Shown piece after piece: positions 39,745 to 61,673 of a DNA stretch of 64,000 nt. The position numbers were made by a program, and so were the translations under genes. The notes below the pieces were generated by a model. The model saw only the letters and a program-made list of their open reading frames with translations, was not told the origin of the DNA and made no database searches. The stretch is from a virus. Taxonomy: Duplodnaviria > Caudoviricetes. Position 1 is the stretch's first letter. The number at the start of each line of letters is the position of its first letter. Location of the stretch: positions 30,898 through 94,897 of the IMG/VR virus record IMGVR_UViG_3300033463_000054; one strand, written 5' to 3'.

Positions 39745-42660
39745 TTAATCCTTCTTGTTAGGATTCATATAATTTATTACGGTAGATCTTGATACGCCAA
39801 TAGCATCTGCTATCTCAGTATTACTGTATCCAGAATTCTTCATGGCTTCTATTTTATTAATTTTAGCCTGTGTGAGAGCAGGTCTGTCCTTAGGCATAGC
39901 GTACTTTCGAAGTTGATCTTGATCACACTTCTGGAAGATGTCAGACTGTTTGCTACTATGAATTGCTCCAGCCTGAATAGCTTCCCATTCTCTAGGCGTA
40001 ATGTCTATCTTTATAGATTTAGCACCAACTTCTTCACGCGCTTTAGTCATCTCTTGTTGCGCGACCTTCTTACGATACTTATTAAGTTCAGTCTTACCAT
40101 AATCGGGATGATCGTCCTTATAATATTGCATACGCTCATCTATTCTAGCATCAGCTCTAAGTTGGGCTTGTCTCTCACGAGGTCTGTTCTTATTAACCAT
40201 AAGAAGTTTCTCGTCAAGTGACTTAACTTCAGGAGCATACTTAGCAGCCGCCTCTTTACTATAAGTCATAGTCGGTGTATTAACAGCTGTCTTTCTCGCA
40301 TAATTAGCCAACGATTTAAGTTCACTAGCATAACCAGCGTATGCTTCTTCTTGCACAGTACCTGAAGAAAGAGTATAAGGATCTTTAGTAATAGACATCC
40401 TATCAACCTTGGTAAAACGTTCAACAGTCTTACCTTTCTTATCCTTATAAAAACGTTCGCTATCAGGAGCTGTTCTATAGGTTATTTCGCCGGTTTCTTT
40501 ATCTATTATACCAGAACCCTTCCTAAGAGGTATTCTAGCTTCAGAACCTGCCATAGTAAGAAGTGTTGATGCACCGGTACTATAACGCCCTGTTTCAGGA
40601 TCAATGTGTCCTTTCCAGCGCTTAGTAAGAGCATCAATGTTATTGTCTCTCTTAGAAGCTTCATAATCTAGATGATGCTTAGCAGAGTCAATGACAACCA
40701 TAGAATGTTTTGTAGCACATGCAAGTTCCTGATCAGAAGCGCCCTTAAGAGTCATGTCCATAATAAGATTTGAAACCATACCCATTTGCTTCTGCTGATC
40801 AGCACCCTTCTTCATGATCTTATTTGAATAACCAGTAGGAGATTTAGGGTCAGGAATACCGGGATATGCCATCTTAGTATCAAAGTCCTTAAGACCATCA
40901 AGAGGTTCTCTATTAGTTACAGACGTAGCTTTATTCTTTCCAGTAGGTAAAACAAGAACTGTATCGCCATCGAAATCGGCACCAGAAAGTCTTTCTGCTA
41001 CATGTGCATTTATACCGACTGCATCCAAAGCATTAGCTCCAAGAACTCTCTTACCTTCAGCATTCTTGTTATTAACTGTCAATATAGGTATCTGTCCAGT
41101 GTTCTCGTGAGGAAATCTTACAAGAGCAACTTTCTCACCATCTTTATAGTTCGGAGCATAAACTTCAGTATCCTTAATATCGGTAAGAGGCAAAATAACC
41201 TGATACTTCTGTCGAGGTAATGCTGCTGCAGACAATGTCGCCGCATTCGTATCACAGTCTCCAGCAAAATCCATTAAATACTTCTTTCGAAGAGAAGGAT
41301 TCTCAAGAGCCATTATTTCGTCAAGTTCTTCTTTTCTGTCAGCTATAGACAATTTAAGCTGTGTCTGAATAAACTCTGGTTTCTGCTTAGCCAAGAACTG
41401 AGAAGGTAAAGTATCAGACCATTCATTCCAGTCGCCTTCTTCTCTTGTTTTATTTATAGGACTAAGCTTCATCTTTCCTGTTTTAGGATCCTTATATTCA
41501 TATTGTCCACCAGCAGTAACTTTAACTACTTCACCGGTTTCAGGATCGCGATATTCTTCTCTTTCTCCAGTCTTAATAAGCGCACCAAAAGGATTCTTAG
41601 GATCCTTCTCGGCAGGCTTAAGAACACCTTTGCCGTTCTCGTCAGGCATTAAAGAAGTTCCGCGTTTCTTGTTGGAGTTAATAAGAATATCATAACCTTC
41701 AGGAATGTCATCAGAATATAATGCCATTCCCTTAATATAGGCCTTACCGTCAACAAGAGTTCTTATCTGAGCATAATGAGAATTACCGAGAGAAAGATCT
41801 TCAACACCACGTCTTATCTCGATAACACCGTCTTTGTCCTTACCACCATCTTCAGCATATCTAACATAAATACGCTTACTATCAAGTGACGAAGGAGGCT
41901 GAGTTTTAACATATGTCGCTCCACCATCGTGAGAATGATAATCATCGATGGTATGAATTTCTTCATGATAGAGATCTTTCTGTTGTGTTCCCGGAGGTGC
42001 AATTACTCTTATTGTTGTAGACTTACCCGGATTCGTAGGCTGGTTAACTCTTCGGTTAGATACAAAATATCCATCAGCTTGGCAAACAATAAGAGCCTCA
42101 TCAAGCATGTTTCTAGAACATCCAAGACTAAGCTCTGCTGATTTACCTACATCGATAATACCCTTTTCGTCAACCTTCTTCTTAAGAACTTCAGCGGTTG
42201 CTTGAGCACCAGTCTGTTTAGCAATTTCATTAGCACGAATATAATTACCAACAGTCGTGTCAGGAATACCAAGTTTTCTACTTATCTCAAGGTTAGAATA
42301 TCCCTTCTCGTGAAGATTCTTACAATGAGTAATAAGTTCGGCCCTTCTTTGATTACTAGCGATAGCTTCATAAACTCGAAACTCCTTGATCTCCATTTCA
42401 AGTTCTTCGGATATCTGTTTAGCAGTCATTCCCTGTTTCTTAAGTTCATTTACACGACTAAGAAAGTCACCACTATGTTGATAAGGTGCATCACCAGAAC
42501 CCCAAGGATATCTACCAGAATGTCTCTTAGTTCCGTAATGCATTAGAACATCATCATTAGAATCATTAGAATAATTAGAATCAACAGATTCGGTGCTATT
42601 TGAAATATCAACAGGTTCATCAAGAAGACTATTGACATGTTCTAAAATATCCATAATCAT
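39745..42660 (-). CDS. Putative single-subunit two-barrel (DPBB) RNA polymerase with N- and C-terminal HTH domains
   Basis: RFP motif followed by LSGADFDGD (ADFDGD at 40963-40980); upstream YIKGM; three HTH-like segments. Confidence 0.7.
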   Translation of the reverse strand: MIMDILEHVNSLLDEPVDISNSTESVDSNYSNDSNDDVLMHYGTKRHSGRYPWGSGDAPYQHSGDFLSRVNELKKQGMTAKQISEELEMEIKEFRVYEAIASNQRRAELITHCKNLHEKGYSNLEISRKLGIPDTTVGNYIRANEIAKQTGAQATAEVLKKKVDEKGIIDVGKSAELSLGCSRNMLDEALIVCQADGYFVSNRRVNQPTNPGKSTTIRVIAPPGTQQKDLYHEEIHTIDDYHSHDGGATYVKTQPPSSLDSKRIYVRYAEDGGKDKDGVIEIRRGVEDLSLGNSHYAQIRTLVDGKAYIKGMALYSDDIPEGYDILINSNKKRGTSLMPDENGKGVLKPAEKDPKNPFGALIKTGEREEYRDPETGEVVKVTAGGQYEYKDPKTGKMKLSPINKTREEGDWNEWSDTLPSQFLAKQKPEFIQTQLKLSIADRKEELDEIMALENPSLRKKYLMDFAGDCDTNAATLSAAALPRQKYQVILPLTDIKDTEVYAPNYKDGEKVALVRFPHENTGQIPILTVNNKNAEGKRVLGANALDAVGINAHVAERLSGADFDGDTVLVLPTGKNKATSVTNREPLDGLKDFDTKMAYPGIPDPKSPTGYSNKIMKKGADQQKQMGMVSNLIMDMTLKGASDQELACATKHSMVVIDSAKHHLDYEASKRDNNIDALTKRWKGHIDPETGRYSTGASTLLTMAGSEARIPLRKGSGIIDKETGEITYRTAPDSERFYKDKKGKTVERFTKVDRMSITKDPYTLSSGTVQEEAYAGYASELKSLANYARKTAVNTPTMTYSKEAAAKYAPEVKSLDEKLLMVNKNRPRERQAQLRADARIDERMQYYKDDHPDYGKTELNKYRKKVAQQEMTKAREEVGAKSIKIDITPREWEAIQAGAIHSSKQSDIFQKCDQDQLRKYAMPKDRPALTQAKINKIEAMKNSGYSNTEIADAIGVSRSTVINYMNPNKKD

Positions 42661-43313
42661 GTTCCTTTCATAGTATTAATAAATGCATCACGTTTCTTGA
42701 TCGTATCCATCATGTCCAAAATATCATGAACGTCTGGCTGCTCAATAACAACATCCTGATTGGTCTGATATATACGAAGTTCTATCTCGCAATCAACAGC
42801 TTTGTATTCGCGATAGTCAAGAAAGAAAAGAGCAGCGTAAATCATAAGCTGTTCTATCTTTGGCTGGGATGCTCCAGTCTTTAAGTCAAATATCCGCAAG
42901 AAATTCTTCTTATCATTGAAATCTATAGCGTCAGCATGTCCGAAACAATTGTCGCTAAAATATAAACAAACTTCAGGGTCCATCCTATAGCCTATAGCAT
43001 CATTGACATAACGACACATATTGTCATACATATCATCAAACGGAATATAGTCAATGACTTTGCGAGGAACACCTTTGTCAAGAAGGCTTATAAGAATATC
43101 GCTCTTATTCTTCTTGCTCATACGGTATCCAATAAGAGGACCTTTAGCTATACGCTTAGCTGCTTCGTCATGCATCAACGTTCCAATTGTTTGAGCATAC
43201 GAATTACAAAATCGTTTCTCAAAGTCATCGTCTTCGTCATAAATCCAATATGACTGTGACGGGCTCAAGACAGAGTGTGAACCTCTAAGTCTTGAAAAAT
43301 TCTTCCATTGCAT
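42657..43313 (-). CDS. PD-(D/E)XK Cas4/RecB-like nuclease
   Basis: GTLMH, GHADAI, IFDLKTG, QLMIYA. Confidence 0.8.
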   Translation of the reverse strand: MQWKNFSRLRGSHSVLSPSQSYWIYDEDDDFEKRFCNSYAQTIGTLMHDEAAKRIAKGPLIGYRMSKKNKSDILISLLDKGVPRKVIDYIPFDDMYDNMCRYVNDAIGYRMDPEVCLYFSDNCFGHADAIDFNDKKNFLRIFDLKTGASQPKIEQLMIYAALFFLDYREYKAVDCEIELRIYQTNQDVVIEQPDVHDILDMMDTIKKRDAFINTMKGT

Positions 43314-43584
43314 CGAGTGTTTCCTCCTTATTCTCAGGATAAATAAATCGAGCAAAGGACATAGAGTCACAATGCTCGACATAATAATCCTGATTCGGTT
43401 GGTGTTTTTCATTGGCGCTCTTCTTACATTCAAGCATTGCCCACTTATCACCATACATCACAGACAAGTCAGGAATGCCCTGAATATAATTAGCGTCATT
43501 CTTTAATACAACACATCCGTCAAACCGCTCCTTGATTTCACGAATGAGATTGGCTTGAAATTTATTCTCTTTAGCATTAGCCAT
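43285..43584 (-). CDS. VRR-NUC-like nuclease/resolvase
   Basis: ENKFQ, GIPDL, LECK, QPNQDYY. Confidence 0.8.
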   Translation of the reverse strand: MANAKENKFQANLIREIKERFDGCVVLKNDANYIQGIPDLSVMYGDKWAMLECKKSANEKHQPNQDYYVEHCDSMSFARFIYPENKEETLDAMEEFFKT

Positions 43585-43606
43585 AAATATCAACAACCTT
43601 AATTAC

Positions 43607-44010
43607 AAGTCTTTTAGTTTTTAGAATGTTTGAGTCAACCATTTACATCGCATGCATCGACAAACAAATGATGTAAGTCATAAGAAGACCACAAGAAAGC
43701 AAGAGAATATCAACAGTCATTGTTTGTTACATCTTGTCGTGAGAGCCAACAAAACACAATTGTCAATATTCATCAAACAACCAACAACTTAAAGGAGATG
43801 AGTTGTCATGGGCAAAAGAAATGGACAAAAGAAAGATATAAGATTGGAGGTATATCTTCATGTCGCTAAAGCTAACTAAAGCTAAGGAGTGAAGCTCTAA
43901 ACCGATTAATAGAGCAGATCACCTATGAAGAATCCTGTTAAGAATTCAACAAACCGAATAGAAAGGAATGGGACACGGTCAACTCAAACACTCTAAAAAC
44001 TAAAAGACTT
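43607..44010 (-). ncRNA. ~400-nt structured RNA closed by a 34-bp stem
   Basis: 43607-43640 pairs with 43977-44010; three mismatches, all G-U on the minus strand; no ORF; promoter motif ~80 nt upstream. Confidence 0.7.
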
Positions 44011-44029
44011 AAAGAGAAGTGTAATACCT

Positions 44030-44740
44030 CTCATTTTGCGTAATCAACATAAATTCGCGTTACGCGAAACGCTGGCATTTTCTCTTCTCTTCCATAATAT
44101 AGCATGTAATTTTTGCGAGTTTGTGATAGTTTTGTGAAAATTGTGAACAAATTGTGAACAACAGCAGAAATCGCCCGAAAATAGGTCGTGAAGAAGAAAA
44201 ATTAGTTTCTATCCAAAAATCCAGTTTTATTTCTTATTTATTATACGCGAAAAAATCACTAAAAATAATAAAAGGGTAGAAAAAAACTGGTTATTTGGTT
44301 AAAAAATGAACAAATGGCTTCCCTACGTCGTTTGACGCCAACCACTTTCCATACCAGTTTTGGTTTTTAACCAGTTTTGTGAGCGAATTTTTCGCGTTAC
44401 GCGAATTTTTAAAAATCGACTTTCAAAAATAAGTGGTTTTTTGGCAAAACTGGTTATAAAACTGGTTATAAAAGTGGTTAGAAAATCGCCTAAAATTACA
44501 CAAAAATACACTAAATTTCAGTGAAATTTGCCTGTCAAAACCTTAAAATATCAACAAATTCATGCCCACACGACCTCTCAACCTACGAAATTATGAACAA
44601 ATTATGAACAGATTTCTCATAACGCGAAATAATGACAAAAATAAGAGACCGTGTAAGTAACTAAAAACGCCCAAAAACACATTAATTTAGACCAAAAACA
44701 CCTTAAAATATCAACAAATCCGACCTAAATTAAAGCGAAA
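44030..44740. other. AT-rich non-coding region with iterated repeats, candidate replication origin
   Basis: Palindrome TTCGCGTTACGCGAA at 44054 and 44391; tandem AAAACTGGTTAT; TGAACAAATT repeats. Confidence 0.5.
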
Positions 44741-44781
44741 AAGAGAAGAGCATGTGTTCTCACATACCCTTCTCATTGGTT

Positions 44782-44976
44782 TTACTCCTCGTCAATCTTC
44801 AACGTAATAATATTATTAAGCGTCAAAAGACCCACGATATTCTGATTGTCGCCCTTTACGCAGGTGACAAGCCATTTTCTGTCATCGGAAATAAAGACAT
44901 CATTCTTGTCCTTATTTACGCTGAACTGAACCTTCTTGCCGTTCTCGTACATTGCTGCAACATTAATCTTTGCCAT
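44782..44976 (-). CDS. Small beta protein, paralogue of 45807-46007
   Basis: Own promoter motif, AGGAGG RBS and terminator. Confidence 0.8.
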   Translation of the reverse strand: MAKINVAAMYENGKKVQFSVNKDKNDVFISDDRKWLVTCVKGDNQNIVGLLTLNNIITLKIDEE

Positions 44977-45143
44977 AGTGTTTCCTCCTAAAATATTAAA
45001 ATATTAAATATTGATTTGGCTTTCTTGCCATATAAGAGTATGTACATTTTGCGATACGCGAATTAATTACAAACTGATACACGAAAAACTAAGAGGCCAT
45101 GTATCAATCCTCAAATATCAACACGACCTTTTAGCCGTGAAAT

Positions 45144-45257
45144 TCATTCTTCTTCAATTATAACATCATTGCCGAATATTGTTTTAACATCTGTGTCGTT
45201 TGAAACAGTCACCTTCATCTCATAACCATCTTCAAATATCACCTTAATAATTCTCAT
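45144..45257 (-). CDS. 37-aa protein not in the ORF track
   Basis: MRIIKVIFEDGYEMKVTV...; AAGGAG RBS, own promoter motif and terminator. Confidence 0.7.
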   Translation of the reverse strand: MRIIKVIFEDGYEMKVTVSNDTDVKTIFGNDVIIEEE

Positions 45258-45433
45258 AATATTCACTCCTTATTAGTTATTAATTGAATACTCAATGGTA
45301 TTCCATATAAGAGCGTGTTATATATGCGAACTTCGTTTACTTTAAACTAGATGCGTGTCATATATGCAAATATCAACAAAGCAAAAACTAAGAGGCCATG
45401 TATTTTCTACACGACCTCAGTCTTTATTTAATC

Positions 45434-45679
45434 CTAGTCGTCGTAATTTTTGTATAGCAATTTAGCAAATATTTGATTTATTGGGTTAAAAAGCCACATA
45501 ACAAACCCGATATCTTTATTTTTGATTATAATGTAATCGCGTTCATCGTCGCAAGATGCATAACACGGATCTTCCGCAATATGCATTACCGCTTCTTCGA
45601 TTACACGTATCATATATTTGATACCGCAGTTGTTAAATGGCGAAATTTCACCTTTAAATCTTTTCATTTTTCTTGCCAT
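45434..45679 (-). CDS. Hypothetical protein
   Basis: RBS, promoter motif and terminator. Confidence 0.7.
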   Translation of the reverse strand: MARKMKRFKGEISPFNNCGIKYMIRVIEEAVMHIAEDPCYASCDDERDYIIIKNKDIGFVMWLFNPINQIFAKLLYKNYDD

Positions 45680-45806
45680 AAAAATCAACTCCTTCCATAT
45701 AAGCGTATGTAATATTTACGATCTAAAATATCAACAAAACAAAAAACAAAAGAAGATGTACAAACGAAAAAGAGAAGAGGCTGTGTAAGCCCCTTCCTTT
45801 GTTTGG

Positions 45807-46007
45807 TTACCGCTCAACCATCCTAGTTCTCAGGGTTTTTACTTCCTTAAGATTTACGATTCCGACCACGGTATCAGTATCGTCCTTGAGCCAAGTGAGG
45901 AAGTAGTCATCGGTCACGGTGTATTTATACTGTGCCGTGTCGATTTCAAACTTCTCATTCTTGCCGTCCTTGAACTGAACCTCTACGTTAATCATTCTCT
46001 TTGCCAT
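45807..46007 (-). CDS. Small beta protein, paralogue of 44782-44976
   Basis: MAKRMINV...VVGIVNL; own promoter motif and terminator. Confidence 0.8.
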   Translation of the reverse strand: MAKRMINVEVQFKDGKNEKFEIDTAQYKYTVTDDYFLTWLKDDTDTVVGIVNLKEVKTLRTRMVER

Positions 46008-46215
46008 AATTAAGTCCTCCTTAAATATTAAGATATTAGTTGAAGAGTAATCCTCTCCATATAAGCCGGTGTAAAATTTGCGAATCGCGAATTAAATATC
46101 AACAAGATAAAAACTAAGAGGCCATGTAATTTCTACACGACCTCTAGACCTCTATTAGTCTTAAGCCATCTTTTTTAGGCCCATAGACTTATCTGGCACC
46201 TTATAATTTTTATTA

Positions 46216-46482
46216 TTATTGCGGTTTCTGTTCCTGTGTTTCATCGAGCTTTTTCTCAATTTCAGTAACTGTTTTATCAAATGCAGCAATAGCACCCTTT
46301 TGTATCTCTGCACTACGCTTCATAAGATCTTGAGTAAACGAAATGCGAATATTATCAAGCTTTTCCTGAAACATTCGTTCTTCTTCCTCTTCTTCGCGCT
46401 TTCTATTATAGAAGTAGTCAATGGCTAAGAATGTGCCTGCAACTAAAGCACTACCTATAATAATCTTATGAATATTTCTCAT
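46216..46482 (-). CDS. Small membrane-anchored coiled-coil protein
   Basis: N-terminal hydrophobic helix. Confidence 0.65.
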   Translation of the reverse strand: MRNIHKIIIGSALVAGTFLAIDYFYNRKREEEEEERMFQEKLDNIRISFTQDLMKRSAEIQKGAIAAFDKTVTEIEKKLDETQEQKPQ

Positions 46483-46505
46483 AAATATCAACACCTCTAT
46501 CTATA

Positions 46506-46826
46506 TTACTCATCAAATATCCCATCAAACACAGCTTCCAAGTCTTCCATCCAAACAGGAGCCCCACGACCAAATATCAAGAAGTCTGTCGTCACGTCAA
46601 AGAACAAAGCCAGTCTAGCAAGTGACTCAGCATTAGGCGTACGTTTACCATACTCCCACTGAAATAATGCCGACTTAGACACACCGATCTCCTTAGCTAC
46701 TTTCTCAACCGACAAACATCTCTTCTTCCTAAGAACATAGATTCTCTTACCGAACTTAACCGGGTCAAAGAAGAAATCCGCTTTACCCGACTTAAAACCA
46801 TGTTCACGAGCTCTTTCAGTCATCAA
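46506..46826 (-). CDS. XRE-family HTH regulator
   Basis: VAKEIGVSKSALFQWEYGKRTP...FDVTTDFL. Confidence 0.9.
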   Translation of the reverse strand: MMTERAREHGFKSGKADFFFDPVKFGKRIYVLRKKRCLSVEKVAKEIGVSKSALFQWEYGKRTPNAESLARLALFFDVTTDFLIFGRGAPVWMEDLEAVFDGIFDE

Positions 46827-47332
46827 ATATCAACTCCTTCTCGCCTCTCAGGTCTACGATAATGATACGCCCTATACGAATCAGGTCTACGATAGAGATA
46901 TGTCATATGCGAACTTCCGCTATTAGGATTGAATCTATCTCGATAATTGTTGAGTACATCAGCTGTATAGTCCATCTCGGCTTTAAGGTCTATTCCTGCT
47001 TCCTTAATTGCGTCAAATATCATTACCTGTTCATCAGTCGAAAGAACATCCTTAGAATATTCACGATATGCATAAGGTATGATAACAGGACCACCCTCAT
47101 GATCGATAAATCTTACATAGAAATCCTCTTCATACTTAATAGGATCGGGACCAAACTCAGCAAGAATCTCAATCTCTATCGACGGAAGCTGAAGAACATA
47201 CTTAGCATCATCCGGCACCTTCTCAAATGTCATCTCACCATCAAGAGAATGCTCATTATACGAATAAAACGCTGTCATATCCACGAAACCATAACCAACC
47301 TGCTTAGAAACACCAACAATATGCTTAATCAT
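46823..47332 (-). CDS. Hypothetical protein
   Basis: 169-aa ORF with RBS. Confidence 0.7.
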   Translation of the reverse strand: MIKHIVGVSKQVGYGFVDMTAFYSYNEHSLDGEMTFEKVPDDAKYVLQLPSIEIEILAEFGPDPIKYEEDFYVRFIDHEGGPVIIPYAYREYSKDVLSTDEQVMIFDAIKEAGIDLKAEMDYTADVLNNYRDRFNPNSGSSHMTYLYRRPDSYRAYHYRRPERREGVDI

Positions 47333-47436
47333 AACTAATTTCCTCCGTTTTCATGTAATTTTCACACAATTTTCACAAAACTATCACATAACTTACACAA
47401 AACAGCCAATAGATAGCTTATTTTCCACTGTCAACT

Positions 47437-47643
47437 CTATTCTCTAAATTCTCTCAGTCTCGACACTGCATCTTCGCGAATATCAACAGCCACTGCATCT
47501 ATGATCTCGCTACAGCTATCACGAACCGTTTTCTTCTCTGACTCCCTCTGCTTCTCCTCGATCTTCCTAAATATCAAATCAACCAGAGCCACAGCTATTG
47601 TCCCACATATAGCAGTACACAAAAGTTTCTCAGCGTTAGTCAT
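47437..47643 (-). CDS. Small membrane-anchored protein, similar to 46216-46482
   Basis: N-terminal hydrophobic helix then a charged tail. Confidence 0.6.
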   Translation of the reverse strand: MTNAEKLLCTAICGTIAVALVDLIFRKIEEKQRESEKKTVRDSCSEIIDAVAVDIREDAVSRLREFRE

Positions 47644-48508
47644 AATTATTCTTCTCCTTCCAAATATCAACACTATAATACTCCACGAACTTATTGACAG
47701 ACAGCCAATTGTCGCAACCACGATCAGAACATGCTTGATTGTAGTCGTCTATTAAGTCCTTATACTCGTCTACCGAAGCTTTCGACACACCAAAGATGTC
47801 ACTAAGAATATCAATCACTTCTGACTCGTTGTTGTAGTATTTATTACCCGTGTCATATAGTTCAAACACTTTACGATCAGTATCTGTAACCTCGACTGTC
47901 TTCTTATCAAATATAACATGACCCTTACGATGCAGAGGTTTGCCACGCTTACCGTATCTAATCGCGTATGTTGTGCCTGAAAGATCTGCGTATGCATCAA
48001 TGTAATAATTATCTTTGAAGTCCGGATACTCAAGATCACAGTTATGTTTTACATAGTAAAATCCACCTTCTTCCGTAGCCATCAAACTATACGAAATATC
48101 AAGGCCTAACTTTTCAAACATACGATCCCATACATTAGGCATAGGATCCCACGCAGTAGTTGTCGTAAGACTAAGCATGGCATTACCACGACTATCCATG
48201 CGGTAATTCCTCGACCAGTCTTCAGGATACTCATCGTCATAATATCCATCAAGCAGATCAAAACTACCACGACATGAATAATCCTTACCGTCATCAGGCG
48301 TCTTTACATAGTGACCACTATACGATTTCTTATCAGGCACTATCTCAAGAAGCCCAACTTCAGCAAGCACATTACCCAGCCACGTACGACCGAACCCATA
48401 ATCACCTATGACAGAGTTTCTCTTGGCATTCATCAAAGTCTTATAGAAAATATCAATATCCTCACGACTACCATGAAATATATAATCTGTCCAGCACCAA
48501 TTAGGCAT
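47636..48508 (-). CDS. MPNWC-family (DUF1281/YubB-like) protein
   Basis: MPNWC start, TTAWDP, EEGG motifs. Confidence 0.6.
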   Translation of the reverse strand: MPNWCWTDYIFHGSREDIDIFYKTLMNAKRNSVIGDYGFGRTWLGNVLAEVGLLEIVPDKKSYSGHYVKTPDDGKDYSCRGSFDLLDGYYDDEYPEDWSRNYRMDSRGNAMLSLTTTTAWDPMPNVWDRMFEKLGLDISYSLMATEEGGFYYVKHNCDLEYPDFKDNYYIDAYADLSGTTYAIRYGKRGKPLHRKGHVIFDKKTVEVTDTDRKVFELYDTGNKYYNNESEVIDILSDIFGVSKASVDEYKDLIDDYNQACSDRGCDNWLSVNKFVEYYSVDIWKEKNNYD

Positions 48509-48527
48509 AAATTAATACTCCTCTCTG

Positions 48528-49822
48528 TTATTCATTAGTTTTAGGTCTATCAAAACCGAAGTCTATAGTATAATCATTCCTATCAACTGCACACTTAGTC
48601 AACATCCATATATTATCGAGAAATTGACCCATTTCCTCATCAGAAAAATCTGACTGAATAAGCATTTCTGCTATCTCATTCATTGTATCTGCTATAATTG
48701 TATTTTCCATAAATTAATACTCCTATCTATTAAACAATCGGCTCACTCTTTTTGACCGACTCATCATGCGGATCCACTCCGTTTATAATGTTACACATGG
48801 CGTTTTTAAACAAAACACTAGCTTCTACTTTATCGACATCTGTATAGTCACAAATATCAATCCATGATTCCAATGAATGAGACAGTCCTTGCAACACCCA
48901 ATGATCATACGAATGAATCATGCGATACTGAATAATGTCGTCGGTATTAATATAGCCAAACTCTACATCTCCATCCAAGTCCTCTATACATCTGATTATC
49001 ATAAAATATCACTTCTCCTTAAATTTACCAAATATTCAGAGCGTATCGATAACTATAGGATGTTCTCTATTTGCTTCAATAATTCTAGTAGCAAGATCAA
49101 GATACATCCAAATATCAACATGTGCAGCCAGAATGTTATCATACGCCGCAACTTGATTACCCTCGCTTATCTGACCGACATGTATATTTCCATTAAAGAA
49201 ATATAAACTATCTTCCATGTAAAGTCTTCTATCATTCTTGATAAAGTCTACATATCTAAAACATACATAAGGGTCCTCAAAACCTCCAACTTTAACCGGA
49301 ATAAAAACTTTAGGTATACCGGCACCAACGTTTATTAGAATTCTTCTATCGGGATCAAATTCGATTTTTATTGTGTTTGTCATAGTGGCTGTGTATATTG
49401 TATTCATATTCATAAATATCACTCCTCCCAAGATCCGTCATAAGCAGATGCTTCTTTAGCCATAATCCAAATAGTATCAAGAAACTTATTAATATCCTCG
49501 TTAGTGAGTTTTGAATTCATAAGTAAATTACTAATATCACTCATGGTCTGATCAATAACATCCTTAATTTTATAAGGTTCATCATTAACGGTTGCTACTA
49601 TCTTTTCTCGCTCTTGCATAAATATCAATCTCCTTCCTTCGAATCAGACATGTACACTGTTCTCGAGCATGCCGGACATTTCATATACACGTCGTAAGGA
49701 AAACACGGTGGAGTGAAATTTACCTCATTACGCCTAGCCGACCATTCACAGTCACAATCCGGACAAGTAAACTTAAACTCTTCCTTTTGGGACTTAACAT
49801 TGCCTAGTTTATGTATAGTCAT
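48528..49822 (-). other. Five small CDS (48528-48710, 48730-49002, 49036-49413, 49419-49619, 49625-49822); the last is a Zn-ribbon, and the first and fourth are paralogues
   Basis: RBS-preceded ORFs; FLDNIWM vs FLDTIWI; CPDC...CPAC. Confidence 0.65.
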
Positions 49823-49880
49823 AAACATTACTCCTTTCAAATATCAACAATGTGCGTTAAACTAAAAGAGAAAGGGGATG

Positions 49881-50858
49881 TTACTCCCCAGTCTCGTCTT
49901 TCCAAGAGTCAGGTATCTTACCTTTTTTAACTTCTCGCCTTTCATATTGATAAGCTTTCATTATTGATGTTACACTTCTTTCTAAGGTTTCATGTTCAAC
50001 AACATTCATGTCCAATTTTAATTGTAATGCAGTTATGCTTTCTTTTTCTGCATCATAATCATTTATCATGTCCACAACTTGTCGTTCATAAACTCCTCGT
50101 ATTCAAATAATGCATCAATAATCGCCTGTTTCAATACGCTTTCTTTTTCGATATTTGTCATAAAATATCAACTCCTTTCATATAAGAAGATGTATTTATT
50201 GCGACTTCACATAACCTTAAACTTCTCATCCAACGAGATCCCATATTCTGCCATCTCACCCACAAGCTGAGAGTAAATATCAACAGCGTCATATGAATCG
50301 ACTTTCATAAGGCACTTAAATCCGTCAGGACAATCAAACGACACTTCAGAATTGTCAGATGAACCCTTAAATATCACAACTGCATCAGTGAGCTCCTGCC
50401 ATTTCTTTGCGTGTGTGATCCTAGACTTCACCCGAATATCAGTCGAACCTCTAGCATCGATCTCGACGGGTACCTCATATGTCCCATCTGCTTTTGTTTC
50501 AGGGGTACGGCTAACATCATATTTAACCTTAATCATAAAATATCAACCTCTCTCTACTGCTATATTAACTAGTCTTTCTCCAGCTTTACCAACCTGAGTT
50601 ATTTCAGGACCGATTTGTGTCATAAGATCAATAAATTCCTTACGACTAATGCTCATATCAGAAAATATCATTTTTATCCGGCCTTTCATATCTTTGAACG
50701 TACGGGTAATTACACTGAGGACAACTAGTTTCCCAAATCGTTTTATCTGATTCAAAATATTTCAGATATTCGTTGCTGAGAAACCAAATATCACAATGTG
50801 AACAATAAAACATTTTAAAGTCTTCGATGTCCGCTCGTTTATCGAGTATGAATTTCAT
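49881..50858 (-). other. Cluster of small hypothetical CDS including a Zn-ribbon (50658-50858)
   Basis: ORF track; CSHC...CPQC. Confidence 0.6.
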
Positions 50859-50884
50859 AGAATATCAACCTTTCTTTAAATCTT

Positions 50885-51019
50885 TTAAATTGTATGGTCC
50901 GTAAGTTGTCCGCAGTTAGGGCATGCCATATATACTCCAAATTCCATATAATGTAGCCACGGAGGCGTAAACTTAACCTCGTCTCATTTTGCTGCCCATT
51001 CACATCTAATTACTGTCAT
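50885..51019 (-). pseudogene. Decayed paralogue of Zn-ribbon gene 49625-49822
   Basis: MTVIRCEWAAK*DEVKFTPP...VYMACPNC: in-frame TGA and an N-terminal deletion. Confidence 0.75.
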
Positions 51020-51059
51020 AAATATCAATCCTCCTTATAACTAAAAGAAGAAGAGGATG

Positions 51060-52372
51060 TTACTCCTCTTCAACATAATCATCATAGTCGTCTCGCCAAT
51101 TGTTATCATAAATTTTTCTCACATCACGAAATTCATCTGTGTCTTCAAAATACTGATCCCATGATTTTTTCCTATATTGAAGAGTCGCATTAATAGTCCT
51201 TTGTCTAGCAGCTTCTCTTTCTGCCATCCAAGGATCTATGTAATTCATTTCCTCAATAATGTCATTATATAATTTTGAATTAAGATTGATTTTCATAAGT
51301 ATTCCTCCTTTTATTTAGCGAGATTTCTCTCATATAAGGAGATGTATATGTTGCGACATAGGAATATCACATCCCTAACTCCACACTCGGATACAAACTC
51401 TTAACAATCTCATGTATCAATTCTTCTTTACCAATACCGAGTCTATTGTCTTCACCATCTTCGCTAATATACACAGGCGTTGTACTATGTTCCTCAGCAT
51501 AGTAATATAAATACATAGTTTCTTCGTTATGAATGAGTAAGAAGAACACCCCTCGAGCCTCAGGATACTTCTCACTTAACTCCTTACACTCGAAGGGAAT
51601 ATCAATACTGTCTATTATCCTAACCCATCGATCATTCATTGTTGCAAAGTCGACCATAATAGTTTCATCTGTACAAAGTTTAACATTCATAAAACATTAC
51701 TCCTTTCCATTACATAACCCTTGATCGTACATGAATTCGTCAAGATAAGCCTGCCATTCTTCTTCTGTCCAGTCTACTTGATGAGGTTTAATTTCTAATT
51801 CGTCGGTGTGATAACCACTAGTCGGAAGGAACCCTTTGGCAACGATACAGTATTTACGAGGTTCGTCACCATCATAGTCAAGGTTTCTTACTCTAATATA
51901 AAAACAATCAATTGAATTAATATTAACCCATGTACCAGTTCTAGTCCTAATGAACTTTAAGCTTCCAGAATCAATCATTGTTAGCATCCTCCTTATCTCT
52001 ATAAATAATACTCCTCGCAGCCTCAATCTCTTCTTTCAGCTGTCCATTAACGAGAAACCATTCTAAAACATTCTCTTTCTCGTCTACATCAAGGCAGTCG
52101 GTTAAATATAAATGCTCGACTTTAGAAGGCGTTTTGCTAAAGGGAGTTTTATAGCTAAGAAAATCGGATAGCCAAATACCATATTTATCCTCCACGAACG
52201 CTATCCAGAAATCCTTACTACCATACCCACAAATATCAACAAGGTCATCACTCACGACCGGATACTTGACCATGGGATGATATGTCTTTTTGTCATCGCC
52301 AGCTATCTTTGCATAAAACCAACTGTGCTGAATTTCACGATTAGAATCTATCTGTATGTCGATCATAAGCAA
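51060..52372 (-). other. Four small hypothetical CDS (51060-51296, 51367-51690, 51697-51978, 51971-52372)
   Basis: RBS-preceded, tightly packed ORFs. Confidence 0.65.
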
Positions 52373-52409
52373 TTTCCTTTCATAAATTCATAAATATCAA
52401 CTAAACGAC

Positions 52410-52604
52410 TTAATCCTTAATTAAAAAGTCCACTGACACTTTATACAAAGATGCTAACTTTTTAACGCCATCTAAGTCAGGTTTCCTATATCCGCTCTCC
52501 CAACCACACAGAGTCGACGGAGAGATACCAAGATCTTTTGCCGCATCTATGAGCCTGATACATTTATCAAGCCTCAATTGTTTAATCTTCTTAGCAATGT
52601 TCAT
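52410..52604 (-). CDS. XRE-family HTH regulator
   Basis: AAKDLGISPSTLCGWESGYRKP...YKVSVDFL. Confidence 0.9.
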   Translation of the reverse strand: MNIAKKIKQLRLDKCIRLIDAAKDLGISPSTLCGWESGYRKPDLDGVKKLASLYKVSVDFLIKD

Positions 52605-52611
52605 ATCATCA

Positions 52612-53548
52612 TTAATCCTTTCCCAAATATAAATGTCGCTTAGGAGCCTTAGATTCACCCTTAGTAACCTTCGACTGACAAATATCATTCTCCACGACAT
52701 GTTTTTCACCAGTACGATCGAGATGATTACACCAGACGAATCGCTTAATTGCTCCGCCGTCTTTGTAACCCCATTGTGCATAAATACAGTCTATGCATTG
52801 TTTGTGGTCGGAAAGCATCACGACTCACCTCCTTCTTGCAGCATCTTAGTATATCCAGTTACAATAAAGAGCTTCTTCATAGTGTCATTTAGCATTCTAA
52901 AATACTCATCACCTGACATACCCAGAAGCTCTTCAAGCCTACGATCTCTTTCCTCATTAGACATACCGTTAGGATTAATCTTAGAGAATATAAGTTCAGG
53001 TTCCTCAAGAATTCTCTCATGTATGCTAATGATCTTACACAGATCAACCTTGAGAGACAACCACGTAGCCTTTATCTGAGCAGGAATATTATCCACCACG
53101 AGAGTTAAATCCATATTGTCACGAAGAGATTTGAAACCTTCAAGCTGATTAGCAAACTCAGAAACGAGTCCATCATCATCAAGCGAACTATAGCCACTGA
53201 CTAGATCGTTTATATCCCCTTTACGACCCTGAAGTTCCAGATTAGCATTAGCGAGTTCATCAAATTCTTCCATTGTACTTTTATTAACATACATAAGACA
53301 ATTCTCCTTTATCATCAAAGATTCGGCCAAATATAAATAGTTATGTCTATGTCTTTATCGTTCTTATCAAACTCCTCATAACATACCGACGATTGACGCT
53401 TACCTATGATCGAGATTATTCCCTGATCATACTTGTAACAAGCTTCCTCCTCTTTTAGATAAGCTTTAAACTTCTCGTCATCAGGTATAACACAGCTTTC
53501 GTCTTTTCTCTTAGCATCCGTCTCGCTGTAATACAAAACCGCTCCCAT
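52612..53548 (-). other. Three hypothetical CDS (52612-52821 Cys-rich, 52818-53330, 53315-53548)
   Basis: Overlapping start/stop codons. Confidence 0.65.
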
Positions 53549-53554
53549 AGGATA

Positions 53555-54464
53555 TCAATCCTCCTCATCCAAATCAAGTTTCTCAAGCGCCCAGTCAAAT
53601 ATCCATGATGCTTTACGTTCAAGTTTACCAAATTCGTCACATAGCTCCCTGACCCTAGGCGACAGAGAGCATGCTAAATATAAAAGACTCACCGGTCCGA
53701 TGAAAGCCATGATGAAGAACACTAATTCACTCATCTTCGTCATCCTCCTCGTCATCTGAATCATCACGGTAGTTGACAGTGTATTTTTCATCGTCGCTAT
53801 TTCCATCATCCATACCGTGAATCAAATACTCATCATAGAGATTATCTATAGTCATGTCCATTAGTCATCCTCCTTTCTAACTAAATCCTTGAATGTCCAG
53901 TCTTCTATCTTGCATAGTGTTTTCTTAAGGACGTCAAGATAAAAGGCCTGTGTGATCTCCTGTGCGATTTCGTGACTCACATCTTCGTTCTTCGTAGATG
54001 CTCTTACCGGGTCCTCATTAACCTTTGTAATACCTCTAACCACGACAAATGGCAGAGCTATAAAGACACATATATAACATATGATCTTGAATGCCACGAA
54101 AACCACGAACTTAAAGGGAAACAGAATGTACTTCATACGATCAATCCTCCTTATCGTCATCCTCATTCTTCTTGTCTATCTCATCAAGCTTAGCCGTTAT
54201 ACCAAGCTTAGAATCGACGTAATCCATAAATCTATCTAAAATATCAAGGCCAATAATGTATCTCCTGACATAATCCCATATAACTGCCGACATTTTATTA
54301 GTGTCTTCATCAGTGATACGTTCATTCAAAGTGCCATTTGCAACTCCCTGAACCGCCACACGAATAATCATCAAGAAATATAAAGGCACACACAAAACAG
54401 TTAATAGTAGATTAATAAGTCCTACTATTATGTATATTATGAATAGAATTAGTTTAAATATCAT
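53555..54464 (-). other. Three small membrane proteins (53555-53734, 53861-54136, 54141-54464)
   Basis: N-terminal hydrophobic helices and acidic C-termini ending ED/EDD. Confidence 0.65.
53727..53861 (-). CDS. 44-aa highly acidic peptide not in the ORF track
   Basis: TAATG-coupled to the upstream gene; 20 of 44 residues are D/E. Confidence 0.65.
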   Translation of the reverse strand: MDMTIDNLYDEYLIHGMDDGNSDDEKYTVNYRDDSDDEEDDEDE

Positions 54465-54650
54465 ACTAACACCTCCATAAAACGAATAACGGGAAAAGAG
54501 CATGTCAACAGTCCAACTTATTGGCCTATAAGTCGAATCTGCCATTAAACTCAATTCCCTACATCCAAATCCAAGTCATAATTTAACCTCCTAAATTTAA
54601 ATTATTAACCGGTCCATAATATACGGTGTATTTTTTGCGAGGTGCGAATA

Positions 54651-56885
54651 TCAATCTATCCTTTCTTCTAACGTTCCATCGTTTATTTGCCTTCCGCATT
54701 CAGGGCAGAACTTTGGGTAATACCAGCTAGAGATCGTTTCACCGGACGCGTAAATGTAAAGTTTGTTATCTTTATCTTTAGCCGTATACAAGCTAGTCCA
54801 ACCATCATTTCCTATGAGATACTCGGTATCATTTACTTTACCCGTGCTTTTTAATGAACAAAATAGACAATCCATAAATATCAATCCTCCAGCTCATCAA
54901 TCACTATTCCATCTGTTACGACTTTAATGATTATTTCGTCATTAGTTGCCTCATAACTAATATCGCCTCTAAGTCTTTCAGCGTTTGTCTCGGGATTAAG
55001 TGACCATCCATAAAGAAAACCGATCTTCTTACGAGGAATAAGCATTAAATCAGCAAGCTCATTAACAAATATAGGTCCGCCATCAATCTTAGCACGGTCA
55101 CAAGCCTTATTAATAAAGTTTTCTATGCATAACTCGACGAATGTCATATTAATTGTACTACCATCAGCAAAATACGGACTTCTCTTATCGAATATCAATG
55201 TAATCATTCTAATTCTCCTATCAACGCATCAAGTTTTTCAACTAAATCCTCAGCTGACTGTCTGCATACTTTAAGCTGCTGAAGACATTCTTCGGTATCC
55301 CAGTATTCAGGTTTACCTTCTTCGGGATCTTTCATACAGTTAGTATAGATCATCTTTATTATTGTATATGCCGTGTTAGCCTCTCCACCACAGCAACAAA
55401 TCTTAGAAAAAGTATTCATTCACCATACCTCCTAAACATTAGCTTATCGAGGTCGTTCAAATATCCATTGAGATCGACCCTCTCTGTTAACAGCTGATCG
55501 AGAATATCATCTCTTTCCTCATTAGTAAGTGCGTACGTTATAGCTCTACCCTCAGCTATGTCCTTGGCTGTATAAGACGGTATGACCAAGAAATTAAGCA
55601 TCTTAGTCTTACCCGTTACCTTGTCTCTAAATACCACAGCCGACCAACACTGATTAGCCGCCTCCTCTATCTCGATAGGCACAAAAACAACTGGGAAATA
55701 CTCATCAAGTACCTCCCAGCCATCTTTAATTCTATAGCCAATATTCGGACAGAACTTAATTTTCCTCAACGTATCGAACTTTACTTTCATAAATATCAAT
55801 CCTCTACCTATAAACTAAAACTCACAAATTCTCATACTTATCTCTAAAGTATTCATGCTTGGTGGCTATTTCGTCCATGCAAATCTTAAATCTAAGATAT
55901 GTCCCGAGATTAATAAACTTCTTCTCATGAATATCCTCGATAATATTCTGCACGAATTCACATGTAGCCAGCATAGAGAGAAGTTTACCCTTGTCAACCG
56001 GAGTTAGCTGAGTTTTACCAAGTTCTTTCATCAGACCGTTTTTAGCCATCTCCAGAGACTTACGAGCCTTAGTTACGTTATCTAAATCCGAAGCCAGACA
56101 ATCCTCACTCAGCTCGAAGTTAAGATTGTCATCCGCCTCGAACATAGAATATACCTCTTCTCTTACTTCCTCAGGCATACTCTGAACCCTCGCTAGTATT
56201 TGCTCTATGCTGAAATCTAAGTCTTCACGATCATGTTCATTCATAAATATCAATCCTCCTTAACGTTATCCGGCAGCTTCTCCACGAGTTTCATAAGATC
56301 ACTCCTACATTTAAGAAGCTTCTTATACCACTCAAGATATGGAGCGACATCATCAATTAGTTTTTTGTGGGTTCTTGATGGTATCTTGGCTCTAAGAGTA
56401 TATCTTACCCCTCCACCACTAAGTCGATTGCAGAAATTACGGAACTGACCATAGTCTCCACCGTTCTTCTTAATCACGGTATGTACAAATCGATTGATTC
56501 TAGGATTAAATATGTCCTGTACGAAGTCAGAAGGAATAGCTACCTCGGCTTGATTAGCCATCCTAATTACCTGATCCCATACGTTATCTTTCTGAACATA
56601 CGCCCAACCATGTTTCATTCCTGAAATATCATTGCGTACAGTATCTACTTCAAGAAGAATATAACAGTCTTCATCAGGAGAATCTATAACAGTATTAAAA
56701 TCAGAACATGTTCTTACTACATGACCTGAACAGGAATACTCTGTAACATACTTCTTATCCCAGAGAACCCTGAGTAAAGGATAGATTTCCTCATCACAAG
56801 GCCACATACCATAAATATCATTGTTGCGATGATGCACACCTTTAATTATAGGATGATGACTAAGTGTTGTAACATACAAACTCAT
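54651..56885 (-). other. Six hypothetical CDS (54651-54875 Zn-ribbon, 54881-55207, 55204-55419, 55416-55790, 55822-56244, 56250-56885)
   Basis: Coupled ORFs, several starting within TGATATTTATG. Confidence 0.65.
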
Positions 56886-57133
56886 TCTTTTACCTCCTCT
56901 TTAGGTACGGCTTTGTTGTATGTGTCCAAAGCATACTCACTCCAGCCGGGAACATCGAGATCTGCCTCGTCATGCTCAACCGCTACATAAAGACAATAAG
57001 GAAGAGCATCTGACATGTTAATCTGTCCCTCCTTATACGTCTTCATGAGCTTTTCTTCTGCTTCTGTTTCGTCCTTAGCCTCAATGATGAATTCTTTGAG
57101 TCTGTATTCTTCGATTAAAGTGTAAAACTTCAT
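56882..57133 (-). CDS. DpnD/PcfM-like protein
   Basis: IEE...IEAKDETEAEEK...YKEGQI pattern. Confidence 0.55.
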   Translation of the reverse strand: MKFYTLIEEYRLKEFIIEAKDETEAEEKLMKTYKEGQINMSDALPYCLYVAVEHDEADLDVPGWSEYALDTYNKAVPKEEVKE

Positions 57134-57139
57134 AAAATA

Positions 57140-58201
57140 TCACGCTCCTTTCGCTTCGTCATAGGATTTGCTGGAAAGTTCCTCCTTAAACTTCCAGTAG
57201 TTTTTCCTCATAAATTCAGTGCCACGTGCCCAAATGAGACCAGCCTTCTCGAAACCAACGTTCTCACAGTCAGCTATGATTTCACGAGCATACTCCTTCG
57301 CATTTGAAGAAGTTTTAGTTTTGTTCGTGATGAGACCCGACTTAAGAGTAACGTTATATTTATTGTTCATATAGACAACCCTGTTACGATTCTTAAGGTC
57401 ATCCATAATAAACTTGGAGTTCTTCAGACCGAGCTTAGACAGAGCTATAGAGATATCATCTGACTTAGTCCACCCCTTGTTAAACAAGAAGCAATCCGTC
57501 GCCAGAATATAATCTCTTGTAGGATCGAGTCTACGGTAATGAGCATACGATCTTTTCTTAGACTTCGACCCGGACTTAGCTACCTTAGCAGCTTCAGCAC
57601 CCGGCTTAACCGAACCGAGTTTATGTGTTACTGTCACAGTCGGAGCAGGTTCGCTAACAGGTATAGGAGTAGGAGTCATCTCTATTATTGTATCACGATC
57701 CTCGGTGCTCTCAGTCTCCTCGTCGTCCGAAATATCATTGTCGTCGGAATATGTTATAGCCAGTCTCGAATAACTAAGAAGTCTCTCATCATGATTATGT
57801 ATCTCGTTTCTTACACTGTCAACCGTCTCAGGATCATCAAGAAAATCTTCTACGGACTGATGAATCATAGCCGCAAGATACTTCTTGAATACGTCCTTAA
57901 ACAGTTCAGGTGTGAGGAACTTATCATGAGTGTAGTTCTCTATGATGGTCGATACATTAACTGTTATGGGGCAGTCACAAATGATGTTGCTTGTCTGACC
58001 GTCAATATCCTCGAGAGAATATATCCAGTTACTACTATATTCGCCGTTATGGGTCATCTTGAGAACCACGATACGTCTGTTGTTTGATGCAATAATAAGA
58101 TAAGGTCTATTCTTAGTTATGTCACCGTTGAGTGCACTAGTGTTAATCGTTGCAAATATAATCTGACCGGGAACAAATTTACGCATGCCGTATTCTTTCA
58201 T
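57140..58201 (-). CDS. Protein with an N-terminal PemK/MazF-like domain and a long C-terminal extension
   Basis: GQIIFA...GDITKNRPYLIIASN...VVLKMT pattern. Confidence 0.5.
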   Translation of the reverse strand: MKEYGMRKFVPGQIIFATINTSALNGDITKNRPYLIIASNNRRIVVLKMTHNGEYSSNWIYSLEDIDGQTSNIICDCPITVNVSTIIENYTHDKFLTPELFKDVFKKYLAAMIHQSVEDFLDDPETVDSVRNEIHNHDERLLSYSRLAITYSDDNDISDDEETESTEDRDTIIEMTPTPIPVSEPAPTVTVTHKLGSVKPGAEAAKVAKSGSKSKKRSYAHYRRLDPTRDYILATDCFLFNKGWTKSDDISIALSKLGLKNSKFIMDDLKNRNRVVYMNNKYNVTLKSGLITNKTKTSSNAKEYAREIIADCENVGFEKAGLIWARGTEFMRKNYWKFKEELSSKSYDEAKGA

Positions 58202-58234
58202 GATTCATTACCTCCGTTTTTCTTTTTATAAATA

Positions 58235-59083
58235 TTAAAATTTATAGTCAACTGCATCTTGTCTATTTATGAAGAAATGAACACCGGATGCGCATTCATT
58301 CCATCTATTGTCATCAAAATCATTAACTTCAATAATTTCCCCGACACGATAAATAAAATCATGGTCATAATGGCTTCTAACGTTTGGAATATCAATAATA
58401 TTTCCTTCTATGTCCTGAAATTCAAGAACTATAGCTTTAGAACATCTACACTTTCTTCCCGTAGCAGACGATCTTTTAGCATCCTCGGTTATCTGTATTT
58501 TAACAATAACCTCCGCGATTTTATATTTAACTGCTTTCTTCCAACCAATAAAGGATCCACTATCAGGACAATTCATGGGAACATAAGGAATGTTTTTCGC
58601 TCCACGCAGGTCCGTTCCATACAGGTCAGTTCCATACAGGTCAGTTCCACGTAGGTTAGCTCCATACAGGTTAACTCCACGCAGGTTAGCTCCATACAGG
58701 TTAGCTCCACTCAGGTCAGTTCCACGTAGGTTAGCTCCATACAGGTTAACTCCACTCAGGTTAGCTCCATACAGGTTAACTCCACTCAGGTCAGCTCTAT
58801 ACAGGTTAGCTCCATACAGGTTAGCTCCACTCAGGTCAGTTCCACGTAGGTTAGCTCCATACAGGTTAACTCCACGCAGGTTAGCTCCACTCAGGTTAGC
58901 TCCACTCAGGTCAGTTCCACGTAGGTTAGCTCCATACAGGTTAACTCCACTCAGGTCAGCTCCATACAGGTTAACTCCACGCAGGTCAGCTCTCATATTT
59001 TCCCATCCATCAGTATCTTTCCTGATCCAATGCTGATGATTGTCAAGTATAATTTTAAGTTTTTCTTTTGAAATATTATTCAT
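58235..59083 (-). CDS. Pentapeptide-repeat protein with a DUF5758-like C-terminal domain
   Basis: About 25 (A/V/T)(N/D)LxG repeats; FIGWKK, RKCRCSKA, RWNECASGVHFF. Confidence 0.9.
   Translation of the reverse strand: MNNISKEKLKIILDNHQHWIRKDTDGWENMRADLRGVNLYGADLSGVNLYGANLRGTDLSGANLSGANLRGVNLYGANLRGTDLSGANLYGANLYRADLSGVNLYGANLSGVNLYGANLRGTDLSGANLYGANLRGVNLYGANLRGTDLYGTDLYGTDLRGAKNIPYVPMNCPDSGSFIGWKKAVKYKIAEVIVKIQITEDAKRSSATGRKCRCSKAIVLEFQDIEGNIIDIPNVRSHYDHDFIYRVGEIIEVNDFDDNRWNECASGVHFFINRQDAVDYKF
58605..58992. repeat. 15-bp tandem repeat encoding the pentapeptides
   Basis: CAGGTTAGCTCCATA-type units. Confidence 0.95.
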
Positions 59084-59110
59084 AAAATTACCTCCTAAAA
59101 TATCAATCAT

Positions 59111-59680: not shown

Positions 59681-59825
59681 TAGACATTACCTCCTAAAAA
59701 TATAAAGCGATAAACGAAAAAGAAGAGAGTGTCTGTATAAAAACATACATCACTCGTCTTCCATTAAAGAACGTGTATTTTTTGCGAAGTGCAAATCACG
59801 AAATAAAGAAAAAGAGAAGAGGCTG

Positions 59826-59993: not shown

Positions 59994-60113
59994 AATAATT
60001 CCTCCTTTTGCATTAAGCAAAGTTATTCTTCTCATATAAGAATATGTAAACTTTGCGAATCGCGAATTAGACAAAAGAAGAGAGCATGAATAATCACACT
60101 CTCTTATTAAATA

Positions 60114-61672: not shown

Positions 61673-61673
61673 G

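Follow-up and report, generated by a model that had tools for sequence, protein, structure and literature searches.

A putative multi-hairpin phage leader RNA with anti-Shine–Dalgarno loops, one of which matches a start of the phage's own genes

The RNA element and its surroundings

The window analysed here, a 64-kb stretch of DNA, is part of a 94,897-bp virus record from bovine gut metagenomes in which almost all phage genes lie on the minus strand. A structured RNA element sits between a 26-bp promoter-like motif and an operon encoding a VRR-NUC-type endonuclease, an exonuclease and a phage single-chain RNA polymerase in which the DFDGD motif is visible (Table 1). The named relatives closest to the VRR-NUC protein by tblastn were Faecalibacterium phage FP_oengus, a Bifidobacterium phage, Lactococcus P092-like phages and actinophages. 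We describe the phage as a temperate, oengus-like phage of the cattle gut; its temperate nature is indicated by a plus-strand tyrosine integrase at G000:22834 (L242:14835-16037), which neighbours a series of single-gene cassettes that carry the 26-bp motif too. Two local features of this region were also recorded. Eight clustered base differences were seen at 43308-43318, where the end of the VRR-NUC gene overlaps the start of the exonuclease gene, among strains in runs X5, X7 and X10. Read on the minus strand, the sequence GTTGATATTT has 19 copies in the window, all of them within the 42600-61750 arm, often directly 5' of a start codon and none on the other strand.

Table 1. Features of the RNA element, its operon and its candidate targets (window coordinates)
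Feature	Position	Strand	Basis or remark
Phage single-chain RNA polymerase, 969 aa	39745-42654	-	phrog_4291
Exonuclease, 218 aa	42657-43313	-	phrog_3953
VRR-NUC-type endonuclease, 99 aa	43285-43584	-	phrog_93; first gene 3' of the RNA element
Closing stem, 3' arm	43607-43642	-	Repeat arms and folding; ends 22 nt before the VRR-NUC start codon
Long A/U-rich inner hairpin, without anti-SD motif	43706-43773	-	Folding; similar segment in L167
Module 4: anti-SD-loop hairpin, CAU in register	43784-43810	-	Best own match not above null
Module 3, central guide: hairpin 43833-43858, pairing segment 43844-43862	43833-43862	-	Own-genome duplex search
Module 2: weak 4-bp hairpin	43880-43896	-	Own-gene matches not clearly above null
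Module 1: open anti-SD motif beside CCCAUUCC	43960-43973	-	Folding and lineage comparison
Closing stem, 5' arm, 34-36 bp	43975-44010	-	Repeat arms and folding
5' hairpin of the putative transcript, 82 nt, palindrome near apex	44011-44092	-	Folding; hairpin kept here in 5 of 5 lineages despite differing sequence
26-bp phage promoter-like motif, TCGCA-N5-TACA-N8-ATG type	44093-44118	-	Genome census; promoter function putative
Candidate target of module 2 (not significant alone): RBS of 37-aa cassette gene (45257)	45262-45272	-	11-nt match
Candidate target of module 4 (not significant): start of 68-aa Cys-rich gene (52818), directly before an HTH gene	52816-52837	-	17 of 22 in register

An earlier sequence-only reading had proposed a multi-hairpin RNA of about 400 nt under a phage promoter motif, and our analysis agrees. 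The 26-bp motif has 17 copies in the genome, all on the minus strand and mostly 5' of small single-gene cassettes, and the same motif precedes the VRR-NUC gene in close and many distant relatives. Since the motif ends at 44093 and is followed by a separate 82-nt hairpin, the primary RNA is put at ~490 nt; judged from these features, transcription from this promoter class probably runs on the minus strand from ~44092 to 43607, and the class itself suggests that expression would be early. The whole 508-nt leader folds with a z-score of -7.83. No terminator-like site was found in the 22 nt between the closing stem and the VRR-NUC start at 43584. At the left edge of the element a sigma-70 scan detected nothing on the plus strand, the nearest candidate (43461-43490) being at chance level.

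Upstream, at 44130-44720, lies a gene-free AT-rich tract with many inverted and direct repeats, possibly a replication origin; similar tracts are present in relatives. It holds a second copy (44391-44405) of the palindrome found in the 5' hairpin (44054-44068). Elsewhere on the minus strand, at 59722-59787, a 40-nt hairpin and a U tract come immediately after a copy of the promoter motif (z -4.0), and we propose that they form a tiny RNA or an attenuator.

The closing stem had been described as a long helix with G-U pairs on the minus strand only, and both parts of this description stand. Its 34-nt arms (43607-43640 and 43977-44010) are 91% complementary, the three non-Watson–Crick positions all give G-U when the minus strand is read and A-C when the plus strand is read, and folding extends the helix to 36 bp. 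The minus strand folds at -121.9 kcal/mol (z -7.96) and the plus strand at -102.3 kcal/mol (z -6.46); none of 100 shuffles folded as well as the element. The structured RNA element is real. It had no match in Rfam at the gathering threshold or at E-values up to 1, ARAGORN returned nothing for it, and blastn against GenBank phages gave only chance matches of 23-37 nt. Exact DNA patterns searched in IMG/VR (a stem arm, two predicted target patterns, and the promoter with the start of the leader) gave zero matches, and a look-up by sequence returned no similar element from other genomes.

Inside the stem, all three of the hairpins named in the sequence-only reading are present (43784-43806, 43833-43858 and 43880-43896), the third of them being weak. 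The first two are stable and their anti-Shine–Dalgarno (anti-SD) loops are largely unpaired, with most positions at 0.9-1.0. The third has only 4 bp, is missing from the minimum free energy structure and is partly open. A fourth anti-SD motif, overlooked before, lies near 43960-43972. Viewed on the plus strand, the spacings between SD and ATG are as had been read, N10 (ATG at 43808) and N9 (ATG at 43860); in the RNA a CAU stands in register upstream of the anti-SD core, and modules 2 and 4 resemble antisense copies of complete translation starts. L086 and runs X5 and X7 carry 18 extra nt after 43882, an insertion in module 2 that completes an antisense copy of an SD, 6 nt, an AUG and codons. 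The sequence CCCAUUCC (43965-43972) beside module 1 is kept in the window and in lineages B, D and E (defined below) without a clear target, and could be a protein-binding or tertiary element.

A conserved scaffold with a variable interior

Relatives were reached through the closest VRR-NUC proteins (83-100% identical) and formed five lineages: A (the window, L084 and L086), B (L168, L177 and L245), C (L181, L182, L188, L248 and L087), D (L167) and E (L169-L171), with L088 in addition. In all of these the element occupies the same position, keeps a long stem and has its lower folding energy on the sense strand. The leader measures 290-550 nt, or less in L088, and combines a 5' hairpin and a long-range stem with an interior that varies. 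Among ~160 more distant relatives (VRR-NUC 60-72% identical), no comparable long stem was present in the 80 that were scanned; these relatives often have the promoter motif, which, where found, lies mostly 40-180 nt before the VRR-NUC start. The element is confined to the clade with 83-100% identical VRR-NUC proteins.

Lineage-B phage genes were found in one MAG labelled Clostridiales. At L250:8742-13134, a junction that falls within a gene links lineage-C phage genes to two others, one encoding a dockerin and one, very large, encoding LamG domains. This junction may be a prophage remnant or a chimeric contig, and is a possible hint at a cellulosome-bearing host.

A prediction made from the window was that stems would covary while loops vary among relatives, and this is what the comparison returned: the closing stem carries compensatory changes around variable interiors. 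Because these interiors differ in length, a global MAFFT alignment misplaces the 3' arms, and stem pairs were therefore counted on anchored arms. Over 29 anchored pairs, L167 and L168 each differ from the window by two two-sided and 4-5 one-sided changes, so that compensatory changes connect three lineages, the window's included. The 29-bp stems of L167 and L168 contain 9 G-U against 0 A-C appositions, and one lineage-A strain has a C-A mismatch in the stem.

Anti-SD 6-mers inside the stems numbered 18 against a null mean of 2.7 (maximum 8; 0 of 1000 shuffles reached 18), a comparison in which the pattern list was picked after viewing the sequences and the counts are not independent because the lineages are related. 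These 6-mers are mostly unpaired, and none occurs on the opposite strand. Stem covariation, G-U bias, loop anti-SD enrichment and the CAU in register all speak for the earlier proposal of a minus-strand, multi-module RNA that is antisense to translation starts.

Whole modules are gained or lost between strains, in units of 18 nt (the insertion in module 2) and 42 nt. The 42-nt module is present in L087 (2750-2800 region) and missing from L181 and L188. L088 has a short version of the element under its own copy of the promoter and ending in a U-rich tail, followed by a second promoter copy for VRR-NUC; this arrangement lies at a contig end and may have arisen in assembly. Lineage E has an 18-bp helix that extends up to the VRR-NUC SD and runs across the closing stem, and we propose that it forms a pseudoknot or switch; the central loop of the same lineage has an 11-nt pairing with the VRR-NUC ribosome-binding site (RBS).

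Complementarity of the loops to own gene starts

Unconstrained duplex energies gave false-looking foreign matches (z near -5, at non-starts), and we therefore relied on contiguous and in-register scores, tested against shuffles that keep the anti-SD core and any CAU. For lineages B and C about half of the gene starts were tested, and for D and E 7-9 starts.

In lineage A, the segment 43844-43862 of the central module pairs at 19 of 19 positions (one G-U) with the SD, spacer and AUG at G000:17055-17073, outside the window. The target is the phage's own 111-aa gene at G000:17057, 58 kb away, and the duplex is the strongest contiguous one that the element forms in the whole 95-kb genome. A match of this quality was reached in 3 of 1500 shuffles (~0.01 after allowing for three to four loops); the in-register test gave a moderate result (13/500). 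A separate 17-nt match to G000:68727-68743 falls inside a coding region without an SD and was treated as chance. In lineage C, the central loop pairs at 23 of 23 positions, all Watson–Crick, with the start of the phage's own 149-aa gene at L181:5810, 4.1 kb upstream (0 of 1500 shuffles; <0.003 after allowing for three to four loops), and the match is present in two assemblies from different samples (L181 and L182). In lineage D, a loop pairs over 15 nt with the phage's own gene at L167:1143 and over 12 nt with L167:1636; the 15-nt match, drawn from only 7 starts, was reached in 14 of 3000 shuffles (~0.02 after allowing for loops). Targets on phage mRNAs were one of two options left by the sequence-only reading, and significant own-gene matches in three lineages support that option.

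These matches are specific to each lineage. Own-gene scores of the central guides were 18.5 in lineage A and 23 in lineage C, against foreign scores of at most 14 and at most 11.5, respectively, and across 1.43 Mb of retrieved loci both guides matched only own genes at the threshold. An AT-rich GGAGGUAU motif common to phage RBS regions inflates matches, and foreign pairs reach scores of 16-20 in a few G-U-rich cases. In an out-of-sample test, the region of the 111-aa gene in lineages B and C was found to contain an orthologue of 111-113 aa. The lineage-C orthologue is the top match of the C guide in that 20-kb region (13 Watson–Crick pairs). The base before GGAGG in this gene is U in lineage A and C in lineage C, and the guides carry A and G, respectively; GGAGG starts with C at the preceding base make up 7 of 21 in lineage C and 2 of 54 in lineage A. 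The lineage-B orthologue has a changed RBS.

The remaining loops gave weaker signals. No loop of lineage B beat the null against 70 of ~135 gene starts, and window modules 1, 2 and 4 had no own target above the null of core-preserving shuffles. The proposal that the RNA silences several mRNAs is at most plausible: only one loop per RNA has a statistically shown target, and the other loops do not rise above the null. Two coincidences between orthologues are suggestive only. The different RBS of the lineage-B orthologue of the Cys-rich gene at 52818, the candidate target of module 4, is the best match of a lineage-B segment, and the lineage-D orthologue of the cassette gene at 45257, the candidate for module 2, shows a 12-nt pairing with a lineage-D loop. 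Across lineages, the 42-nt module of L087 pairs best with the window gene start at 53548 (18.5 of 22) and with L177:2439 (17.5 of 22), and the central loop of lineage D pairs over 17 nt with a lineage-A gene. The target proteins belong to no PHROG family and had no usable Atlas match.

Proposed function, alternatives and known systems

The match of a loop to an own gene start, far above chance in three lineages, makes it probable that the RNA down-regulates selected phage genes. We put the probability at about 0.6 that it is a trans-acting minus-strand antisense RNA whose loops block selected own gene starts as the stable RNA accumulates. The computations support this with the fold and its strand bias, a scaffold conserved in form and place, the enrichment of anti-SD motifs in the loops, and pairing with own genes beyond chance in three lineages. 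We envisage that the 5' hairpin and the long closing helix would form a stable scaffold displaying three to four hairpin modules that are each antisense to a translation start, with the anti-SD core exposed in the loop and the spacer and CAU in the stem flank. The loop would contact the SD of the target first and, as the weak A-U stem melts, zip onward through the spacer to the AUG; the resulting duplex would block 30S binding and perhaps become a target of RNase III. The central module, at least, would act in trans on own early or middle genes of unassigned function, and its sequence would track the gene starts of each lineage. The predicted effect is a damping or shut-off of target genes as the stable RNA builds up. 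Transcription, its timing, release by a double-strand-specific RNase, repression and targets for the other modules are what we infer on this model. Processing stems of this kind are known from T7 early mRNA and from rRNA, and by analogy the long helix may allow RNase III to release the RNA from the polymerase mRNA. RNase III also cleaves the sRNA-target duplexes of RsaE and RoxS (PMC6158497).

We also entertain, as a doubtful extension, that the element is a protein-free array of exchangeable guides, in which a double-strand RNase-type stem brackets ~20-nt guides that are gained and lost as inverted copies of starts and that silence a changing set of genes of the phage itself, of competing relatives and possibly of the host. 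If this were true, the list of silenced genes would be readable from the sequence.

It is unlikely that the main job of the RNA is the silencing of host mRNAs, such as those of defence genes, with own-gene pairing being secondary. Modules 2 and 4 and the lineage-B loops would fit such a role, as antisense copies of full starts with CAU in register that lack a significant phage target, and C-rich sRNAs of Firmicutes bind SDs, likely without Hfq (PMC6158497). However, the significant targets are all phage genes, and the 23/23 own-gene match would go unexplained; a search of 301 genomes from the class to which a Ruminococcus MAG belongs, among which the host is probably not included, yielded one match (module 4, with two mismatches).

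Rather improbable, in our estimate, is a role in immunity or exclusion like that of c4, in which the lysogen would produce the RNA to silence early genes of the prophage and of superinfecting relatives, with modules that turn over as the starts of those relatives change. The tyrosine integrase would suit this role, c4 of P1 and P7 works in this way (PMC5320573), and the L087 module and the lineage-D central loop find their cross-lineage partners among starts of lineages A and B and in a lineage-A gene, respectively. The strongest matches are nevertheless to own genes, and those across lineages may reflect orthologues in unsequenced parts of the genomes. Furthermore, the RNA has the promoter class of the lytic-type cassettes and reads into the RNA-polymerase operon without a clear terminator. 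Both this role and the silencing of host mRNAs can coexist with antisense control of own genes for individual modules.

The constant position of the element 5' of the operon, together with the lineage-E helix beside the VRR-NUC SD and the 11-nt pairing of its central loop with the RBS, could point to a cis-acting leader of the VRR-NUC, exonuclease and RNA-polymerase mRNA that serves as an RNase III site, stabilizer or translational switch, its loops being incidental. We consider this very unlikely: the VRR-NUC RBS of the window has no GGAG to pair, many distant relatives have leaders of just 40-130 nt, the module of L088 is split from the gene by a second promoter copy, and such a leader would leave the 19- and 23-nt matches, at distances of 4-58 kb, unaccounted for.

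Least probable is a MITE-like DNA insertion, an inverted-duplication remnant of gene starts, or a plus-strand sponge with GGA loops (CsrA-type) or mini-ORFs. In favour of these, the terminal inverted repeat is long, the plus strand has a fold of its own (z -6.5) and displays RBS-ATG patterns, and the 23/23 inverted copy could be a recent duplication. Against them, the element is a single copy in its genome with no target-site duplication in its flanks, the 23-nt copy occupies the loop position where lineages A, D and E have their guides, and the one-strand G-U bias, the compensatory changes, the minus-only promoter motif and the lack of a sigma-70 site at the left edge disfavour the plus strand, which shows only 3-4 GGA loops. 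The plus-strand CsrA sponge, which the sequence-only reading had named as its refuting alternative, is thereby disfavoured by the G-U bias and the minus-strand promoter motif.

As a proposed antisense regulator of own gene starts, the phage RNA would resemble c4 and cuckoo in its mode of action, yet it falls outside both families. P22 sar, lambda OOP and aQ are encoded opposite their target. As is proposed for the phage RNA, they exert antisense control over genes of their own phage, and sar blocks translation initiation (PMC12197685); they are single-target, whereas the targets here lie 58 kb (lineage A) and 4.1 kb (lineage C) away, on the same strand as the RNA gene. The c4 RNA of P1 and P7 is phage-encoded and released from a longer transcript, as would also apply to the RNA described here; its loops cover an RBS of the phage, and minor changes in them determine which relative is recognized (PMC5320573). 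The likeness lies in the use of an own-mRNA RBS as loop target, computationally supported here by the 19/19, 23/23 and 15-nt duplexes. However, c4 is processed by RNase P, measures ~77 nt and has three stem-loops, with two loops that act jointly on one target mRNA (PMC5320573), whereas the phage RNA measures 300-550 nt, has a long closing helix and 3-5 differing modules that are gained and lost, and pairs over SD, spacer and AUG in one run of 15-23 nt. It folds into a multi-branched structure of 404-490 nt, closed by a stem of 34-36 bp, and has no Rfam model match.

With cuckoo (CcsR, ar14), a chromosomal sRNA of Alphaproteobacteria that repeats one motif, CCUCCUCCC, in 2-4 adjacent hairpins (PMC4615179), the phage RNA has in common a modular series of hairpins whose loops present unpaired anti-SD motifs and whose stems vary. 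Unlike those of cuckoo, its loops all differ, lack CCUCCUCCC and extend into target-specific spacer and CAU; a long stem surrounds its hairpins, and it belongs to the leader of a phage operon. Host sRNAs provide a further parallel in their use of C-rich motifs. In RNAIII of Firmicutes, such unpaired motifs bind the SD. RsaE and RoxS likewise have unpaired C-rich SD-binding motifs, are likely Hfq-free and form duplexes that are possible RNase III substrates (PMC6158497). All three are host-encoded and use short repeated seeds on many imperfect targets, whereas the pairing of the phage RNA is long, near-perfect and on phage genes, and there is no sequence or Rfam similarity. Our literature search found no description of such an array.

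Here we have characterized a putative phage RNA for which the strongest new facts are lineage-specific matches of 19 and 23 nt to own gene starts and a modular turnover of the interior. Because these guide-target pairs are long and lineage-specific, they make a clean testable prediction, namely that repression should switch when lineages A and C exchange their loop and RBS alleles. They also flag which of ~135 uncharacterised genes the phage must restrain, and the scaffold could become a compact multi-gene knock-down tool for Clostridia. The phage antisense regulators compared here are mostly single-target or cis-encoded; a modular trans-acting RNA that tracks own gene starts would represent a protein-free form of early-gene control in phages that carry their own RNA polymerase.
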